Made by a program: the position numbers and the translations under genes. From UHGV virus genome UHGV-0167591: 64,000 nucleotides of DNA, one strand, 5' to 3'. Below the pieces are notes generated by a model that saw nothing but the letters and a program-made list of their open reading frames with translations, was not told the origin of the DNA and made no database searches. The DNA comes from a virus. This document shows positions 5,419 through 57,104 of this stretch, piece by piece. How positions within the stretch are numbered: the first letter of the stretch is position 1; the number at the start of each line of letters is the position of its first letter.

Positions 5419-5551
5419 GATAGATATTTTGTTTATCGCGAATCACATTTTTTCACTTCAGTACCTGTGTGCTATACTCCTTCTTGATTGATTGGATGCG
5501 GAATACAACCCCGCTCTTTTGTGCAGCCTGGCTCCTTGCCAGGCTTTTTTT

Positions 5552-15999: not shown

Positions 16000-16108
16000 A
16001 TACAAAAATCCCCTCTGTGAATTGAGGGGATTTTAGCATGGTGATCAGATATCAGCTTTATTCAGAATTTTACCCACCAGCTATGTGATTTTTTCTGACA
16101 GGTCATCT

Positions 16109-46362: not shown

Positions 46363-47324
46363 AGAAAATAGTTTCCCGTGGACGAGTGCTGGGTAAGAAT
46401 AGCTCCGAGTTTGCTCGCATGCTTGAAGGCAGTGAAGGCACCAAAACCTTTACCCTAAAATCTGGCCGCCAGGCTAAATTTTTGCTTACCGTTGTGCTGA
46501 GTGGTGAGATTGAGTCGCGCACGTTCGTTGACCCGGCAGTTAACGGCCGCGATCAGTCTCTGCTTACTCCTGAGTCGGTAAGCGATATTTCCCGCACCAT
46601 TAAATTGCAACAGTTCTTCCCGGCTATCGGTCGTATGGTTGGGGAGCGCATTGAGGTATTGGACGGATCACGCCGCCGTGCTGCGTGTATCTTCAATGAA
46701 ACGAAATTTGAGATTCTGGTGACAAAAGATGAGATCAGCCTGGCGGATGCCCGCCAGCTGGCCATTGATATCCAGACAGCCCGCGAACACACCCTGCGCG
46801 AGCTGGGTAAACGCTTCGAGGTTATGTACGGCAAGAATATGACCAAAGAAGAGATCGCCCGAGCTGAGAACATCTCAAAGGCTAAAGTGACGCGAGCTTT
46901 CCAGGCTGCGGCGGTGCCGGATGAGATGATTGCTGTCTTCCCTGTTGCCAGCGATCTCGCCCTGCCTGATTACCAGTTGCTGCTCCAGATCTCCGAAGAT
47001 GCTAACGCTAAAAACGTACCGATTGGAGAACTGGTTGATACGGTGCGCGAGCGAATTGCAGAGACTGAGGGCGCGAAAGAGGATAAAGCGAAGATACTGG
47101 CTATCTTCAAAGCGGAAAGCAAAAGCCTGAAACCTGCGCCGGTTAAATCTGTAGTGGTAGAGAAGCTGCGAGATTTCTCTGACCGACGCCAGTACGCACG
47201 AAAGAAGACCGATCCAAAAAAACGGGTAGTCGCTTACGAGTTCTCCCGACTCCCGTCTGAAGTGCAAACTGAAATTGACGAAGCAATAAAAAAAATCATT
47301 GGAAAAATGTCTGCTGGGGAATAA
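46359..47324 (+). CDS. parB: ParB centromere-binding protein, 321 aa
   Basis: ParB/Spo0J-like core (EVLDGSRRRAA); start overlaps parA stop (ATGA). Confidence 0.88.
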   Translation: MKKIVSRGRVLGKNSSEFARMLEGSEGTKTFTLKSGRQAKFLLTVVLSGEIESRTFVDPAVNGRDQSLLTPESVSDISRTIKLQQFFPAIGRMVGERIEVLDGSRRRAACIFNETKFEILVTKDEISLADARQLAIDIQTAREHTLRELGKRFEVMYGKNMTKEEIARAENISKAKVTRAFQAAAVPDEMIAVFPVASDLALPDYQLLLQISEDANAKNVPIGELVDTVRERIAETEGAKEDKAKILAIFKAESKSLKPAPVKSVVVEKLRDFSDRRQYARKKTDPKKRVVAYEFSRLPSEVQTEIDEAIKKIIGKMSAGE

Positions 47325-47369
47325 TTCCGCTGGTGGGAGGTGGTGTTATCCCCTCCCCTTCCTAAAATG

Positions 47370-47470
47370 TCCCGCGCCAATTTCATGTTTAACTGTATGA
47401 TATATATAGATATTCATGAAAAATTTCAGGCTGAAATTCCCACGATTTAACGCCTGCTTTCACCGTCCAC
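47370..47470. other. Candidate parS centromere
   Basis: AT-rich block followed by inverted heptamers AAATTTCAGGCTGAAATT and further ATTTCA-like boxes just after parB. Confidence 0.5.
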
Positions 47471-47567
47471 TTCCCCGCATAAAAAATTTAAAAAATTACT
47501 TTTCGCGAGAAAGTCAACAAGTGACTTTCAATAAAATCTCTTCCGAAAAGGGATTCACACAAGTGCC

Positions 47568-49295
47568 TTGTGTTTAAGGAAGAGTAACTTGAGTAACTTA
47601 CGCGAATACCAGAATCGTATTGCAGATATCGCAAAACGCTCTAAAGCCGTTCTTGGCTGGGCAAGTACAGCACAGTTCGGTACTGATAACCAATTCATCA
47701 AAGATGATGCTGCGCGTGCCGCATCTATCCTTGAAGCTGCACGCAAAGACCCGATTTTTGCTGGTATCTCTGATAATGCCACCGCTCAAATTGCTACCGC
47801 GTGGGCAAGTGCACTGGCTGACTATGCCGCAACACATAAATCTATGCCGCGTCCGGAAATTCTGGCCTCCTGCCACCAGACGCTGGAAAACTGCCTGATT
47901 GAGTCCACCCGCAATAGCATGGACTCCACCAATAAAGCGATGCTGGAATCAGTCGCGGCAGAGATGATGAGTGTTTCTGACGGTGTTATGCGTCTGCCTT
48001 TATTCCTGGCGATGATCCTGCCTGTTCAGTTGGGGGCAGCTACCGCTGATGCGTGTACCTTCATTCCGGTTACGCGTGACCAGTCCGACATCTACGAAGT
48101 CTTTAACGTGGCGGGTTCTTCTTTTGGTTCTTATGCTGCTGGTGATGTTCTGGACATGCAATCCGTTGGTGTGTACAGCCAGTTACGCCGCCGCTATGTG
48201 CTGGTGGCAAGCTCCGATGGCACCAGCAAAACCGCAACCTTCAAGATGGAAGATTTCGAAGGCCAGAATGTCCCAATCCGCAAAGGTCGCACTAACATCT
48301 ACGTTAACCGTATTAAGTCTGTTGTTGATAACGGCTCCGGCAGCCTACTTCACTCGTTTACTAATGCTGCTGGGGAGCAAATCACTGTTACCTGCTCTCT
48401 GAACTACAACATTGGTCAGATTGCCCTGTCGTTCTCCAAAGCGCCGGATAAAGGCACTGAGATCGCAATTGAGACGGAAATCAATATTGAAGCCGCTCCT
48501 GAGCTTATCCCGCTGATCAACCACGAAATGAAGAAATACACCCTGTTCCCAAGCCAGTTCGTTATCGCGGCTGAGCACACGGTACAGGCGGCGTATGAAG
48601 CACAGCGTGAGTTTGGTCTGGACCTGGGGTCCCTACAGTTCCGCACCCTGAAGGAATACCTGTCTCATGAACAGGATATGCTGCGTCTTCGCATCATGAT
48701 CTGGCGTACTCTTGCGACCGACTCCTTTGACATCGCTCTGCCGGTTAACCAGTCCTTTGATGTATGGGCAACCATCATTCGCGGCAAATTCCAGACTGTA
48801 TATCGCGACATTATTGAGCGCGTTAAATCTTCTGGTGCGATGGGGATGTTTGCTGGTGCTGATGCTGCATCTTTCTTCAAACAGCTTCCGAAGGATTTCT
48901 TCCAGCCAGCTGAAGAATATACCCAGACTCCGTACGTACACTTCATCGGCACCCTGTTCGGTAACGTGAAGGTGTACGAAGTACCTGAGGGTATTTGCAC
49001 GAACCTGACCGCCGAAGGTATCCAGTTCAGCCCGATGGATGTGCTGTGCTACGTCCGTGATGAAAATCCGGGCAAGGCAGGCTTCGTGACTGGTGATGCG
49101 GTCCCGGCTATCCCATTCCAGCATCCGACCACCCCGGCACTGGTCAACCGAACCACTCTGTGGGGTTCTGCTATTAACGATATGCATCCACGCAACGGTG
49201 CTGACTACTTCACCCGTGTAACTCTGACTATGGCCAAAAATGGCGGAATTAACTTCCTGACCGGTAACACGATTGATGCTGGTGACTCTGAGTAA
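47568..49295 (+). CDS. Putative major head protein (gene 23 position), 575 aa
   Basis: Long ORF after parS, TTG start (47568 or 47589 after AAGGAAG); first gene of a structural block. Confidence 0.6.
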   Translation: MCLRKSNLSNLREYQNRIADIAKRSKAVLGWASTAQFGTDNQFIKDDAARAASILEAARKDPIFAGISDNATAQIATAWASALADYAATHKSMPRPEILASCHQTLENCLIESTRNSMDSTNKAMLESVAAEMMSVSDGVMRLPLFLAMILPVQLGAATADACTFIPVTRDQSDIYEVFNVAGSSFGSYAAGDVLDMQSVGVYSQLRRRYVLVASSDGTSKTATFKMEDFEGQNVPIRKGRTNIYVNRIKSVVDNGSGSLLHSFTNAAGEQITVTCSLNYNIGQIALSFSKAPDKGTEIAIETEINIEAAPELIPLINHEMKKYTLFPSQFVIAAEHTVQAAYEAQREFGLDLGSLQFRTLKEYLSHEQDMLRLRIMIWRTLATDSFDIALPVNQSFDVWATIIRGKFQTVYRDIIERVKSSGAMGMFAGADAASFFKQLPKDFFQPAEEYTQTPYVHFIGTLFGNVKVYEVPEGICTNLTAEGIQFSPMDVLCYVRDENPGKAGFVTGDAVPAIPFQHPTTPALVNRTTLWGSAINDMHPRNGADYFTRVTLTMAKNGGINFLTGNTIDAGDSE

Positions 49296-49355
49296 TCAGG
49301 GGAAGCTCTCCGTTTAACATAGCGCCCCCGCGCGGGGCGCATAACAGGGAAAGTT

Positions 49356-50945
49356 ATGTCTCAATATTCAATTCAACAGTCATTAGGTAATGCATCCGGC
49401 GTAGCGGTTAGTCCGATCAATGCCGATGCGACGTTATCTACCGGTGTTGCATTAAATAGCAGCTTATGGGCTGGTATTGGCGTATTTGCGCGTGGCAAGC
49501 CGTTTACTGTTCTCGCTGTTACTGAGTCCAATTACGAAGATGTTCTCGGCGAACCGTTGAAGCCATCTTCCGGCTCACAGTTCGAACCAATTCGTCATGT
49601 GTACGAAGCTATTCAGCAAACGTCTGGTTATGTTGTTCGTGCTGTTCCGGATGATGCGAAGTTCCCGATTATTATGTTCGATGAATCAGGCGAACCGGCT
49701 TACAGCGCGTTGCCATACGGTTCTGAAATTGAACTTGATAGCGGCGAAGCCTTTGCGATCTACGTTGATGACGGCGACCCATGCGTTTCACCTACGCGTG
49801 AGTTAACCATCGAAACGGCAGCTGCGGACAGCGCAGGTAATGAACGCTTCCTCCTGAAACTGACCCAGACGACTTCGCTCGGTGTGGTTACGACCCTGGA
49901 GACACATATTGTATCTTTGGCGGAAGAAGCGAAAGATGACATGGGCCGCTTGTGTTATCTGCCTACGGCTCTGGAAGCCCGTTCTAAATATCTGCGCGCG
50001 GTTGTTAATGAAGAGCTGATTTCTACCGCGAAAGTAACAAATAAAAAATCGCTGGCGTTCACTGGCGGTACCAACGGCGATCAGTCGAAAATCTCAACTG
50101 CTGCTTACCTGCGTGCGGTGAAAGTGCTGAACAATGCGCCGTACATGTACACCGCTGTTCTCGGCCTGGGTTGCTATGACAATGCGGCGATCACCGCGTT
50201 AGGTAATATCTGTTCTGATCGCCTGATTGATGGCTTCTTTGATGTCAAACCGACATTGACGTACACGGAAGCGATCTCTGCTGTTGAAGATACCGGTTTA
50301 CTTGGTACCGATTATGTAAGCTGTGCTGTCTATCACTTTCCGTTCTCCTGCAAAGACAAATGGACCCAATCCCGTGTGGTCTTCGGTCTGTCTGGCGCGG
50401 CGTATGCGGCGAAAGCTCGTGGCGTTAAGAAAAACTCCGATGTCGGCGGTTGGCATTACTCACCGGCTGGTGAAGAACGTGCCGTCATTGCTCGTGCATC
50501 ACTTCAGCCGCTGTATCCGGAAGACACCCCGGACGAAGAAGCTATGGTTAAGGGGCGTCTCAATAAAGTATCTGTAGGCACCTCTGGCCAGATGATCATC
50601 GATGATGCTTTAACTTGCTGCACGCAGGACAACTATCTGCATTTCCAGCACGTACCATCCTTGATGAATGCAATCAGCCGTTTCTTTGTCCAGTTAGCCA
50701 GACAGATGAAGCATAGCCCGGACGGCATTACTGCGGCTGGCCTGACTAAAGGGATGACGAAACTTTTAGATCGCTTTGTTGCCTCCGGCGCTCTGGTGGC
50801 TCCTCGTGATCCGGATGCTGACGGTACAGAACCGTATGTGCTGAAAGTTACGCAGGCGGAATTCGATAAATGGGAAGTGGTCTGGGCCTGCTGCCCGACA
50901 GGTGTAGCCCGTCGTATCCAGGGCGTACCGCTGCTTATTAAGTAA
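49356..50945 (+). CDS. Putative tail sheath protein (gene 22 position), 529 aa
   Basis: Size and composition consistent with contractile sheath; SD AGGGAA. Confidence 0.55.
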   Translation: MSQYSIQQSLGNASGVAVSPINADATLSTGVALNSSLWAGIGVFARGKPFTVLAVTESNYEDVLGEPLKPSSGSQFEPIRHVYEAIQQTSGYVVRAVPDDAKFPIIMFDESGEPAYSALPYGSEIELDSGEAFAIYVDDGDPCVSPTRELTIETAAADSAGNERFLLKLTQTTSLGVVTTLETHIVSLAEEAKDDMGRLCYLPTALEARSKYLRAVVNEELISTAKVTNKKSLAFTGGTNGDQSKISTAAYLRAVKVLNNAPYMYTAVLGLGCYDNAAITALGNICSDRLIDGFFDVKPTLTYTEAISAVEDTGLLGTDYVSCAVYHFPFSCKDKWTQSRVVFGLSGAAYAAKARGVKKNSDVGGWHYSPAGEERAVIARASLQPLYPEDTPDEEAMVKGRLNKVSVGTSGQMIIDDALTCCTQDNYLHFQHVPSLMNAISRFFVQLARQMKHSPDGITAAGLTKGMTKLLDRFVASGALVAPRDPDADGTEPYVLKVTQAEFDKWEVVWACCPTGVARRIQGVPLLIK

Positions 50946-50954
50946 GGGAATACA

Positions 50955-51770
50955 ATGAGCAAAAACTTTTTTCAATCCGGGGCATTTTTGGGAAATGAAT
51001 TGTCCCGTTTCGCTTTGAACGCTGATCCGGTGCAGTTGATGGAATCTGCCCGTGCAAGTGCCCAACCGCCAACCGAACCGGAGATTAATAATAATCCGGA
51101 ACAGGCGGCACAGATTAACGAGAACGTTCCACCTGACCAGGCTCCTGAGCAAATCCTGGAAGGGAAAGAAGGTAAAGAATGGACCGTCGAACAGGCGCAC
51201 CAGATGATTCTGGAAGCTGCAAATCGAAGTGCTATGCAGAATGCGTTGAGTAATGCGGCTGATGCCGTTTTCGCCTGGGCTGATAGCGGTGATCTGACTT
51301 TCGACTCCCTTGATGGTTTCGTTCAGGCTATCGCTGGTATCTCTGACGACGACGATACCGAAGTTACAGAAGAACAGGACGATGCCTATAACGAAGCATG
51401 GGCAAATGTTGCTGACTTCCTCGCAGCATGCGGTGTAGATGATGACCTGATCGAAGCACTGGCTGACGATGAAGACGACGACGCAGCTGCTGATGTCGGT
51501 TCCGCTATTGCAGGTTTGGATAGCGACGACCGCGACGAACTGGAAGCGGCGTTTGTTGTTGCTGGCACTTCTGATGAAATGCTGACTGAAGCATTTAAGA
51601 AGGTTGTTCGTAACGGTGAGATCAAACTCATCCGTAAACGCCTGCGTAAAAAACGTCTGACTGCGGCTCAAAAATCGGCGCTGAAAAAAGCGCGTCGAAA
51701 AGCCCAGACTGGCGCGGCAAAACTTGCCCGCAAAAAGTCAATGAAACTGCGCCGTAAGCGCCTTGGCTAA
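50955..51770 (+). CDS. Virion-associated protein with acidic core and basic C-terminal tail, 271 aa
   Basis: Highly acidic central region and Lys/Arg-rich C-terminus; SD AAGGGA. Confidence 0.55.
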   Translation: MSKNFFQSGAFLGNELSRFALNADPVQLMESARASAQPPTEPEINNNPEQAAQINENVPPDQAPEQILEGKEGKEWTVEQAHQMILEAANRSAMQNALSNAADAVFAWADSGDLTFDSLDGFVQAIAGISDDDDTEVTEEQDDAYNEAWANVADFLAACGVDDDLIEALADDEDDDAAADVGSAIAGLDSDDRDELEAAFVVAGTSDEMLTEAFKKVVRNGEIKLIRKRLRKKRLTAAQKSALKKARRKAQTGAAKLARKKSMKLRRKRLG

Positions 51771-51805
51771 AGGAGGAGGCCGGAGAACTCCGGCCTTTAA
51801 CTTGA

Positions 51806-52387
51806 ATGGCTCCTATAGCTTATGGGGTTTACAGCCAGGCTGACGGTGTATCGCCATATCTGAAAGTTACTTTAACGAACTCTCAGTACCAGGTTACCGG
51901 ATATATCAGCCAGGGAGCGGCAATGAACATGGCCCAGAATTGGGAAGCGCCGTTTACCGGTATGTCCATGGGATCTGTTTCTGGTGCTCTGGGTGGTTTT
52001 GTGCAAGTAGGTACTGAAACAACGTCAGTTGCCCGTTGGAATAGCTTAATGGTTTGGGAAGGGGGGACACCGCCGACGTTCACGCTGCCCGTAACTTTCA
52101 TTGCTTTGAACAATCCATTCATTGAAGTTTCAGGCGCTATAGCCGCGTTGACAGCCATGATTAGCCCGGAACTAAAAGCGGCCAATGTTGGCGGTCGAAT
52201 CCCGGAGCGTGTGACGCTAAACATTGGTCGCCGGATCAACATCACCGATGTCGCCATCCAGGACTTAAGTTTTGATCTCGATGCGCCAAGGGACAGTAAT
52301 GGATATTTCCTGAAAAACACCGTCAACCTCCAGTTGACCGGTTCTTCGATATATAACAGCTCCGATATTGTTCGGGCGTTCCAGTAA
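51806..52387 (+). CDS. Putative tail structural protein, 193 aa
   Basis: ORF in structural block; hairpin between the upstream AGGAGG and the ATG. Confidence 0.5.
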   Translation: MAPIAYGVYSQADGVSPYLKVTLTNSQYQVTGYISQGAAMNMAQNWEAPFTGMSMGSVSGALGGFVQVGTETTSVARWNSLMVWEGGTPPTFTLPVTFIALNNPFIEVSGAIAALTAMISPELKAANVGGRIPERVTLNIGRRINITDVAIQDLSFDLDAPRDSNGYFLKNTVNLQLTGSSIYNSSDIVRAFQ

Positions 52388-52398
52388 AAGGATTTTAT

Positions 52399-52908
52399 AT
52401 GGGGCACAATAACACTAAGGGAAACAGTAAATTTATTAAGGGCCGCTATACTGCCAACGCGGCCAAAGGCGAACGACTGGTATCTTCTGAATTCCAGCTC
52501 ACTTTTGCAGGCTATGAAGATATCAGTGTACTTGTTCGTACGTCGCAAATCCCTGAAATGACTCGCGAGGATGTGGAGGACTATGGTCCGAATGGTGTCA
52601 AGTTCAACCAGCACGGTCCAATTCGAAACTCTGGGGAAATCCAGGTCCAGTGCGTGGAGACTATCGAAGGCGATATTCTTCAGTTCATTAAAGATCGCAT
52701 TGCGGCGAAGGACTATGTTGATATCACGATGGCTGCGACCCCTGAATCCAAATCTTCCGGGGTTAACGCTGTGACAAAAGCTGCTACAACAATTGAAATG
52801 TTGGACTGCAAAATCTACAGTGATGCAATCGACTTTAGTACCGAAGATGTGACTGCCGCTGTGCGTCCGTCACTTCGTATCGTCTACAACTGGATTGAGT
52901 GGGATTAA
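52399..52908 (+). CDS. Putative tail/baseplate structural protein, 169 aa
   Basis: ORF with SD AAGGA; followed by a strong terminator. Confidence 0.5.
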   Translation: MGHNNTKGNSKFIKGRYTANAAKGERLVSSEFQLTFAGYEDISVLVRTSQIPEMTREDVEDYGPNGVKFNQHGPIRNSGEIQVQCVETIEGDILQFIKDRIAAKDYVDITMAATPESKSSGVNAVTKAATTIEMLDCKIYSDAIDFSTEDVTAAVRPSLRIVYNWIEWD

Positions 52909-52927
52909 GAGTCATCCCTTGTATTTT

Positions 52928-52951
52928 AAAGCTCCTTCGGGAGCTTTTTTG
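52928..52951. terminator. Rho-independent terminator
   Basis: AAAGCTCC-ttcg-GGAGCTTTTTT hairpin with U-tract. Confidence 0.85.
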
Positions 52952-52991
52952 TGCTTAAATTATGCCGGTATAGATAGATTTTGAGCATGTA

Positions 52992-53288
52992 ATGGAAATT
53001 GATTTCTCATACTCTCCTGAGACGATAGAAAGAAGATTCGAAATAATTGGATGCATAACTATTTCAGATGAGCATTATTGGATTCTCTATGATGCCAATA
53101 CATGGTTATGTGCCTTAGCAGAATGTCAGCCATCGTTATGTGTAGGGGAGGGGGCTTTTCGACATAAGGTGCTGGCTACACTTGAAGTGAACACGTTACG
53201 ATATTGGTGTGTAGAAATACTTAGTGATAACAAAGAATTGCATTTATTATTGCTGAATAAGTGTGCTTCTCTGCGCAGAAAAGCATGA
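52992..53288 (+). CDS. Hypothetical protein, 98 aa, AT-rich
   Basis: ORF in an AT-rich islet; no motifs recognised. Confidence 0.35.
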   Translation: MEIDFSYSPETIERRFEIIGCITISDEHYWILYDANTWLCALAECQPSLCVGEGAFRHKVLATLEVNTLRYWCVEILSDNKELHLLLLNKCASLRRKA

Positions 53289-53452
53289 GAAAACCCAACC
53301 GCTCTCCCGAATTATCAGAAGAATATGTGCGGAAAGTTATAGCTAGCTATTGAAAAGCTAAAGTAGATCGGTTAGAGTTGCCTTACTCATCTACCATGTG
53401 TAGAAAGAGCGATCGAACCCGATACATAGCAATATGTGTCGGGTTCAGCTTT

Positions 53453-53917
53453 TTATGTCCCAAGTGCTCTTTTTCTGCTTTGTTTGAGTGTTCTGATTTT
53501 ACTGTCATAGGTTACAACATAGGCTGTTTTGAGAAGCCAATAGTCTCTACGTGCGGATAGCACAACAACGTAGTTTTCACACTCATTCCAGATTACCCAC
53601 TCTTCAGTTGGTCCTCGTCTTTCAGACCAACATGATATATCGCAATGGTTATAATTCCTTATCATATGCGCGATCCAGCGAATTCGCTTGCACCGTTCAA
53701 GATCGGGTATACGTTCTTCTTCTATTTTTCCCTCTGATACTAAATGCCAAAATCCGAATTCTTTCCCATCATATTCCGGTGAATAACGTAATCGAACAGG
53801 GAGACCCTTAAACGTTATATTAGAGATTAAAATATCTTCTCTAACAACATCATATACATCGTCTATATACTCTTGCCAACTTCCATTGAAGTACAATAAA
53901 TCTGGCATTTGAAGCAT
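53453..53917 (-). CDS. Hypothetical protein, 154 aa; second gene of an AT-rich coupled pair (rlfB position)
   Basis: ATG 53917 preceded by GGAGG (7 nt spacing); start overlaps the upstream stop (TGATG). Confidence 0.6.
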   Translation of the reverse strand: MLQMPDLLYFNGSWQEYIDDVYDVVREDILISNITFKGLPVRLRYSPEYDGKEFGFWHLVSEGKIEEERIPDLERCKRIRWIAHMIRNYNHCDISCWSERRGPTEEWVIWNECENYVVVLSARRDYWLLKTAYVVTYDSKIRTLKQSRKRALGT

Positions 53918-56551: not shown

Positions 56552-57104
56552 TTTTTCCAGTCCGATCCAGATCGGGTTGGTCGATCTGCTCAGAAACCTG
56601 CCAGTTAGCTGGCAGGTTTTTTTGTATAAGGCGTTTTTCAATGTGGATTTGTGGCTGGCTAAAACGGAAAAGGCCACAGGTTTTACCCTGTGGCCTGTTC
56701 GGGCGCAACGCGCTGCTGTTACACTGCGAACTAACGCCCTTCAATGTTGTTATGCAATGTGGAGAAGTGAGGCAATCACTGATGCCAACACAGAACTTGA
56801 AGCTCCGATGATGACAGGAACAATGATGTTGGTCACAATCCACTTGCAAGCTTTTTGAAGAGTCATTACGAAGCTCCGCACACTTGCAACAGCAACTGCT
56901 TGCGGCTATCCTCTTGTTGATCAGACATAAGGAATGCCCTCGCTGGTTGCCTCCATGCAACGTTGTGGCGAGGGTTTTTTCTGTCTGGAGGCTACGCATC
57001 CAGGAGTTCATAACCCCCGCATAACGTTGCGCCTCCCCTGAAAAACAGGGTTGGGCATATCGTACACATGCCTGTAATTTATGGCAAATCCTGGTCTGAA
57101 TACG

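Follow-up and report, generated by a model that had tools for sequence, protein, structure and literature searches.

A candidate split ribosome-binding site bridged by an intercistronic hairpin upstream of pmgG in P1-type phages

Experimentally supported split ribosome-binding sites are very few, genes 25 and 38 of phage T4 being the textbook cases. In the mRNA of T4 gene 25, a hairpin reduces the distance between the Shine–Dalgarno (SD) sequence and the AUG from 27 to 11 nt (Nivinskas et al., 1999; Malys and Nivinskas, 2009; reviewed in PMC3014915). In that of T4 gene 38, a hairpin reduces it from 22 to 5 nt (PMC3014915). At these split sites, mutations that destabilize the stem lower initiation, and DMS probing confirms the structure. 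The gene 25 arrangement is confined to close T-even phages (PMC3014915). The junction between gene 21 and pmgG in a P1-type phage-plasmid, described here, would be a new example of this known, rare design of the initiation region rather than an element of a new kind. No mention of this junction was found in the P1 literature that was searched.

The window, i.e., the whole 64-kb stretch of DNA that was analyzed, is a P1-type phage-plasmid with 95–97.5% identity to phages P1, P7 and SJ46 and to many P1-type phage-plasmids. According to the P1 annotation, the late operon 23-22-21-pmgG-bplB runs from promoter LP23, and no promoter or terminator is annotated in P1 between gene 21 and the end of bplB. 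The operon comprises the following features.

47568–49295: gene 23, major capsid (P1 annotation).
49322–49340, + strand: GC-rich hairpin GCGCCCC-cgcgc-GGGGCGC, lacking a U-tract; the gap in which it lies measures 60 nt and separates capsid gene 23 from sheath gene 22 (sequence).
49356–50945: gene 22, tail sheath (P1 annotation).
50955–51770, + strand: gene 21, described as ‘baseplate or tail tube’ in P1 (list of open reading frames; P1 annotation at 97% DNA identity).
51806–52387, + strand: pmgG, T4 gp48-like baseplate/tail-tube junction protein (open reading frame, P1 annotation, PHROG, literature).
52399–52908, + strand: bplB, tail tube protein (open reading frame, P1 annotation, PHROG, cryo-EM preprint).
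52928–52953, + strand: canonical intrinsic terminator AAAGCTCC-TTCG-GGAGCTTT with TTTTGT behind it, at the end of the late operon (terminator scan).

The PHROG matches of the operon genes are to sheath, PmgG-like and tail tube families; gene 21 falls in PHROG 1053, to which no function is assigned, and Pfam gave no match. PmgG is essential and virion-associated, like T4 gp48 at the baseplate/tail-tube junction (PMC9024508), and forms one hexameric ring in the virion (cryo-EM preprint). BplB makes up the tail tube and gp22 is present in 322 copies (cryo-EM preprint).

The gap between gene 21 and pmgG measures 35 nt. Its layout is TAA (51768–51770)-AGGAGGA-GGCCGGAGAACTCCGGCC-TTTAACTTGA-ATG (51806), in which TAA is the stop codon of gene 21. 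The elements within it are the following.

51770–51779, + strand: SD run AAGGAGGAGG, directly 3′ of the gene 21 stop (sequence).
51778–51795, + strand: core RNA hairpin GGCCGGA-GAAC-TCCGGCC (folding; −13.0 kcal/mol).
51796–51805, + strand: A/U-rich spacer of 10 nt, TTTAACTTGA, without an SD (sequence).

The preliminary description of this DNA had claimed a perfect inverted repeat of 8 bp between the AGGAGG and the ATG at 51806. The repeat is indeed perfect and is one base longer, with 9 nt per arm (AGGCCGGAG at 51777–51785 and CTCCGGCCT at 51788–51796) and 2 nt separating the arms. Since a 2-nt loop cannot form, the RNA hairpin consists of 7 bp (G78-C95 to A84-U89) closed by a GAAC loop. The pairs A77-U96, G76·U97 and G75·U98 can extend it to 10 bp (51775–51798; −16.6 kcal/mol). 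Upon RNA folding, the core pairs have a probability of 0.87–1.0 in contexts of 63, 121 and 201 nt, and the fold of the 81-nt region has a z-score of −4.0 compared to dinucleotide shuffles. The last GG of the run AGGAGGAGG (51771–51779) consequently represents stem bases and not free SD. A version of this run designed to lack the SD is ACCACCAGG, in which G78-G79 are kept.

The best SD register is AAGGAGG at 51770–51776, which forms a duplex of −12.1 kcal/mol with the anti-SD. It is separated from the ATG by 29 nt and is thus too distant to act linearly, for which the limit was put at approximately 15 nt. An ordinary SD for pmgG was searched for by pairing the 3′ end of the 16S rRNA to every 9-mer ending 2–10 nt before the ATG, and the best pairing in this range reached only −1.7 kcal/mol. 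The last three bases of the spacer form an in-frame TGA (51803–51805) that adjoins the ATG and shuts the pmgG frame on its upstream side. Further downstream, the first in-frame ATG is codon 40, which lies past residues that are invariant in nine homologues (G7, S16, K20, V30, G32), the N-terminus of PmgG being conserved among homologues. An alternative start for pmgG is rejected because of this abutting TGA and the position of the next ATG. Another conventional SD and start for the gene had been named in the preliminary description as what would contradict a structural role of the repeat; none was found, so the structural reading is not refuted. The hairpin is situated wholly between the SD and the start codon, and its folding would bring the spacing to an effective 11 nt, within the working range of 5–13 nt.

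A programmed frameshift or readthrough at the gene 21 stop was also considered, and rejected. The sequence CTT GGC TAA AGG at this stop holds no slippery heptamer of the type X XXY YYZ, which would be expected 5–9 nt ahead of the hairpin, and the extension open reading frames are short and not conserved. The pmgG gene is in the −1 frame compared to gene 21, and from the gene 21 stop the −1 frame closes at the TGA at 51803–51805; a 0-frame extension would add 9 codons, and the lengths of such extensions vary among relatives. The hairpin begins 7 nt past this stop.

To see how common the arrangement is, both strands of the 64-kb window were scanned for a strong SD abutting a hairpin of which the end lies 5–13 nt before an open reading frame of at least 60 aa without an ordinary SD. 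The pmgG junction is the sole place with this design. The other junctions in the operon are ordinary, with AGGGAAAGTT-ATG for gene 22 (after a hairpin of its own), TAAGGGAATACA-ATG for gene 21 and AAGGATTTTAT-ATG for bplB, in which the SD (AAGGA) lies 6 nt before the ATG.

The geometry of the junction resembles that of T4 gene 25, which is located at the gene 26-25 junction. In both cases, a distant SD (27 nt in T4, 29 nt for pmgG) and a stable hairpin between SD and start codon give an effective distance of 11 nt. Both are intercistronic junctions of a myovirus baseplate gene, and both arrangements are restricted to a subclade and absent in distant relatives. However, there is no sequence homology between them, and PmgG is gp48-like, not gp25-like. 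The T4 genes overlap, whereas the SD of pmgG comes right after the upstream stop in a gap of 35 nt. In addition, the pmgG hairpin is older than the split site, as it is found in outgroups that have an ordinary SD after the hairpin. T4 gene 25 has been proven by mutation and DMS probing, whereas the pmgG case is known from sequence and folding. With T4 gene 38, the junction shares a hairpin between SD and AUG that shortens an otherwise non-functional spacing. The spacing in T4 is shorter, however, and gene 38 encodes an unrelated protein, a tail-fiber assembly factor, without homology to PmgG.

The preliminary description had proposed, as one of two options, a structural device that brings the SD near the start codon. 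All available computational tests favor this option, and on the basis of comparative sequence data and modeled folds the hairpin, on balance, probably bridges the two parts of a split pmgG ribosome-binding site in the window phage and in the P1 subclade. When folded, it would loop out 18 of the 29 nt and leave approximately 11 nt between SD and AUG, made up of A77 and the 10-nt spacer. A 30S subunit could then pair with the SD while the AUG sits in the P site, whether this subunit comes from the free pool or from termination at the gene 21 stop, the AUG itself being mostly unpaired by prediction (0.81–0.85). We infer that the upstream SD is the one in use, that the hairpin remains folded on the 30S subunit and in which direction expression is affected. 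Taking the width of the helix into account, an effective spacing of 11 nt would be at the long end of the workable range. The SD moreover falls within the stretch covered by a ribosome that terminates at the gene 21 stop, which would make initiation inefficient. It is also partly masked by the GGA/UUU extension of the stem, with a probability of being unpaired of 0.17–0.31, so that thermodynamic folding predicts a mostly paired SD. This is a counterpoint to the split site. The weak GGA/UUU extension and the long effective spacing probably keep the output of pmgG modest. One may speculate that a modest output suits PmgG, a six-copy protein encoded between genes that are needed at hundreds of copies, although it is odd that the strongest SD of the operon would serve its lowest-copy protein.

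The junction was compared with that of its relatives in a set of 50 distinct gene 21–pmgG junctions, taken from phages P1, JK004 and D6, from plasmids, from IMG/VR contigs and from contigs with intermediate PmgG homologues. One genome per species was scanned for junctions as well, using a profile from a 7-sequence alignment, and a plasmid search with the JK004 protein yielded no additional intermediate lineages. Nearly all relatives from the Enterobacterales carry a GC-rich hairpin after gene 21, in the form of 28 distinct stems, and it always starts 3–10 nt past the gene 21 stop. In most hairpin-bearing junctions, an ordinary SD is present 3′ of the hairpin. The junctions were grouped as follows.

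Group A (P1 subclade, putative split site): the window, P1/P7 and the variants L038 and L130; JK004; the Salmonella members L004, L103, L234, L243 and L245; L235 and L246; Klebsiella aerogenes L236.
Group B (hairpin followed by an ordinary SD): D6-like, Pantoea/Enterobacter-like and Citrobacter-like lineages; Serratia, Erwinia and Chimaeribacter; L207, L223, L229, L239 and L244; L237 and L238, the closest outgroup.
Group C (no hairpin): Aeromonas, two Vibrio lineages and Pseudoalteromonas, with gaps of −1 to 19 nt and an adjacent SD or overlapping genes.

Group A comprises PmgG proteins that are 69–100% identical to that of the window. None of its junctions has an ordinary SD; instead, an SD of −7.4 to −12.2 kcal/mol lies against the 5′ base of the stem, in forms such as AGGAGGA, CAGGAGA, GAAGGAGG, ATGGAGG and CAGCAGGAGA. 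The distance from the Watson–Crick stem to the ATG is exactly 10 nt, with the exception of the K. aerogenes junction, in which it is 9 nt and the stem is one G-C pair longer; the effective spacing between SD and ATG is thereby 10–11 nt throughout the group. The stretch from SD to ATG aligns without gaps. The spacers themselves differ (TTTAACTTGA, TTTATCTTGA, TTGAATTATC, TTATTGACAG, TTAACCTGAT, TACATTGCA), and only 2–5 of the 10 bases are common to the window and the diverged lineages of JK004 and Salmonella. The arrangement is thus conserved despite divergence of the sequence. The loops vary as well (GAAC, GAGC, GCGA, TTTC, TTCCC, TTCG, TTCA, ATA), as does the loop-closing pair (A-U, G·U or G-C). 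At 80 P1/P7-type loci in IMG/VR, no more than three single-base variants of the 35-nt gap occur; among these, A84 to G (as in P1) retains the pair as G·U.

The constancy of the upstream SD bears on a different explanation, in which pmgG is translated without any upstream SD. Translation would then rely on re-initiation 35 nt past gene 21 or on S1-assisted binding to the A/U-rich spacer, the AGGAGG being irrelevant or used otherwise. The A+T content of the spacer, 67–80% in every member of the subclade, and the predicted accessibility of the pmgG AUG are consistent with this explanation, and so is the position of the SD within the footprint of the ribosome terminating at 51768–51770. However, all lineages of the subclade retain a GGAG core at an unchanging position next to the stem, while its flanking bases and the spacer vary. 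The upstream SD is furthermore present exactly where the downstream SD is lost; in lineages with an ordinary SD, nothing comparable is found upstream except weak GGGA motifs. SD-independent initiation is therefore considered very unlikely.

Group B junctions have stems of 6–13 bp, an SD of −6 to −10.7 kcal/mol and a start codon 9–20 nt after the stem. Their stems are wholly different between lineages, as illustrated by the arm pairs AGGCCGCCT/AGGTGGCCT, GCCGCCGGG/CCCGGCGGC, GCAGCCGGG/CCCGGCTGC, GAGCCACCAGC/GCTGGTGGCTT, TGCCCACC/GGTGGGCA and ATCAGGCCATCA/TGATGGCCTGAT. Every stem position shows several pair types among the relatives, formal pair counts being informative for the core stem only, because the MAFFT alignment of the junctions places L236 one column off and the outer pairs of L237 and L238 in insertion columns. 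The GGCCGG/CCGGCC core is invariant in the P1 subclade and in the sister lineages L237 and L238, which thus carry the same hairpin as P1.

These comparisons indicate that the hairpin is almost certainly real and under selection. A chance palindrome is ruled out by the relatives together with random windows: a simple hairpin of −14 kcal/mol or lower occurs in approximately 2% of 57-nt windows drawn at random from these loci, versus 41 of the 44 hairpin-bearing junctions. A protein-binding palindrome at the DNA level is unlikely, as the sequence of the stem is wholly different between lineages while pairing is retained. An RNase III site requires a longer stem, and with 7–13 bp the stems at this junction are too short for it. 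Rfam covariance models gave no match at the junction at E ≤ 1; over positions 47000–53500 two matches were obtained, both chance snoRNA matches away from the junction.

In a neighbor-joining tree of PmgG, group A is monophyletic with L237 and L238 as its sister, the other members of group B branch further out and group C is basal. As judged from these sequences, the SD appears to have switched sides a single time, in the common ancestor of the P1 subclade, and the Enterobacterales lineage either gained or retained the hairpin. The relocation counts as one evolutionary event, so the link between loss of the downstream SD and gain of the upstream SD amounts to one observation plus its later maintenance. 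Groups A and B share the hairpin and not the position of the SD, from which it follows that bridging cannot be its original role; the comparison suggests that the hairpin predates the split arrangement.

Such an older role brings in a third explanation. Intercistronic hairpins are known to stabilize segments of polycistronic mRNAs, examples being the REP elements in malEFG and the hairpins of the puf operon. The hairpin after gene 21 could likewise block 3′-to-5′ exonucleases or insulate cistrons, so that the 23-22-21 part of the mRNA outlasts the rest, its placement between SD and ATG being incidental in P1. Like the REP and puf stabilizers, it is a GC-rich stem-loop without a U-tract just past a stop codon inside an operon, with a conserved structure; unlike them, it does not belong to a family of repeated elements, and a high-copy gene is among the genes downstream. 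In its favor, almost every relative from the Enterobacterales conserves the structure rather than the sequence, irrespective of the side on which the SD lies, with the 28 stems, the low folding energies of 41 of the 44 junctions and the constant distance from the gene 21 stop all pointing in this direction. The gene that precedes the sheath gene is likewise followed by a comparable hairpin lacking a U-tract. In the 23-22 gap this hairpin precedes the ordinary SD of gene 22, and at the corresponding position P1, JK004, D6 and a Pantoea plasmid each have a different hairpin, again with an ordinary SD behind it. The highest copy numbers are those of genes 23 and 22, and gp21 is absent from the listed virion proteome. 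On the other hand, bplB is needed about as much as the sheath gene and lies downstream on the same transcript, so favoring the upstream segment is not obviously useful. Stabilization also leaves unexplained why the P1 subclade lacks an ordinary SD and keeps a strong one at the stem, with a spacer fixed at 10 nt. As the full account of the junction in P1, it is rather unlikely. As the ancestral role of the hairpin, a barrier to exonucleases or an insulator between cistrons is probable, and this role may coexist with a split ribosome-binding site.

A wider scenario that builds on the split site can be offered tentatively. In the ancestor of the P1 subclade, the SD of pmgG would have moved from the 3′ to the 5′ side of an older hairpin, a natural experiment in which a bridged SD replaces an adjacent one. 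The split site would act as a throttle on a six-copy protein encoded between genes for approximately 300-copy proteins on the same mRNA, and both this hairpin and the one that follows the capsid gene would be punctuation elements of P1/D6-type late operons.

The second option of the preliminary description, an intergenic attenuator, finds no support as a conserved function. In this explanation, the hairpin would be a leaky rho-independent terminator that lowers the transcription of pmgG and bplB compared to genes 23, 22 and 21. Resemblances to such terminators certainly exist: the stem is GC-rich with a typical stability of −13 to −16 kcal/mol, five of the eight bases following C51795 are T, and a full U-tract is present in some relatives. 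In the Citrobacter-type relatives L092, L203, L205 and L206, the homologous hairpin has a stem of 11–12 bp and is followed by 5–6 T, which gives it the look of a true terminator situated mid-operon, immediately upstream of the pmgG SD. Some termination may occur in these lineages, to judge from their sequence. In the window, however, the tract TTTAACTT after the core stem is short, its first three T are predicted to pair with 51775–51777, and the hairpin was not called in a scan for consensus terminators. A conserved U-rich tract is lacking, as most relatives have none at this place (JK004 TTGAATTA, Salmonella TTATTGAC, L236 CTACATTG, D6 CTCTACCT, Pantoea AATGAGGA, L237 GGGGTGAG). Moreover, bplB, a gene required in high copy, lacks an annotated promoter of its own, and the true terminator of the operon comes after bplB. 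A role as terminator or attenuator is accordingly unlikely, and a leaky terminator that sets the level of pmgG and bplB is improbable. In the papers searched, neither 3′-end mapping of P1 late RNA nor reporter, probing or toeprint results for P1 were found, and the main text of the P1 RNA-seq and CRISPRi papers gives neither transcript ends nor per-gene values at this junction.

Hairpins are abundant elsewhere in the window. Perfect hairpins of at least 7 bp with at least 5 G-C pairs make up 36 entries, compared to 5.0 ± 2.7 in dinucleotide shuffles. Those at 5525–5545, 22122–22144 and 56594–56619 have T-tracts and are terminator-like, and others of 10–11 bp have no T-tract. Further examples are found at 16005–16034, 22724–22752, 32782–32808, 35747–35773, 39955–39978 and 56671–56696. 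Between pmgF and the convergent rlfB, a hairpin of 14 bp (53415–53446) is followed by AGCTTTTTAT and looks like a strong terminator.

If the bridging function of the pmgG hairpin holds true, a second, unrelated phage lineage would show a geometry in which approximately 29 nt are reduced to 11 nt, which would mean that the design recurs. The relatives that have the same hairpin with an ordinary SD constitute a ready set of variants for tests of the distance and structure that a 30S subunit can bridge. As a genetic tool P1 is in wide use, it is a common carrier of resistance genes, and pmgG is essential. No major concept is changed by the finding. In practice, gene callers and predictors of ribosome-binding sites that scan 5–15 nt upstream would score pmgG as lacking such a site.

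The start of pmgG is probably misplaced already in the annotation of some relatives. The annotated ATG starts in D6 (L003, MF356679.1; 2477 versus 2495) and in a D6-like E. coli plasmid (L006, NZ_CP104667.1; 1480 versus 1522) are probably wrong. An upstream in-frame TTG in D6, or GTG in the plasmid, has a GGGAG SD 8 nt away and restores the N-terminus MICGA...DG(I/V)SP.

Gene 21 itself deserves mention as well. It is reported to be essential, yet it has no Pfam match, and the published table of virion proteins has no entry for it (position 56; PMC9024508). The gp21 protein has an acidic middle section and a Lys/Arg-rich C-terminal tail, ...KKSMKLRRKRLG, which is strongly conserved, and it may be an assembly factor. 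In the contig L015 / L120 (IMGVR_UViG_2617271072_000004), a run of seven A (CGTAAAAAACG) replaces the six present in the window at the equivalent of 51648–51653. The extra A causes a frameshift in gene 21 that shortens the protein by approximately 77 codons, the extra base being either an error of sequencing or a genuine frameshift in the homopolymer.
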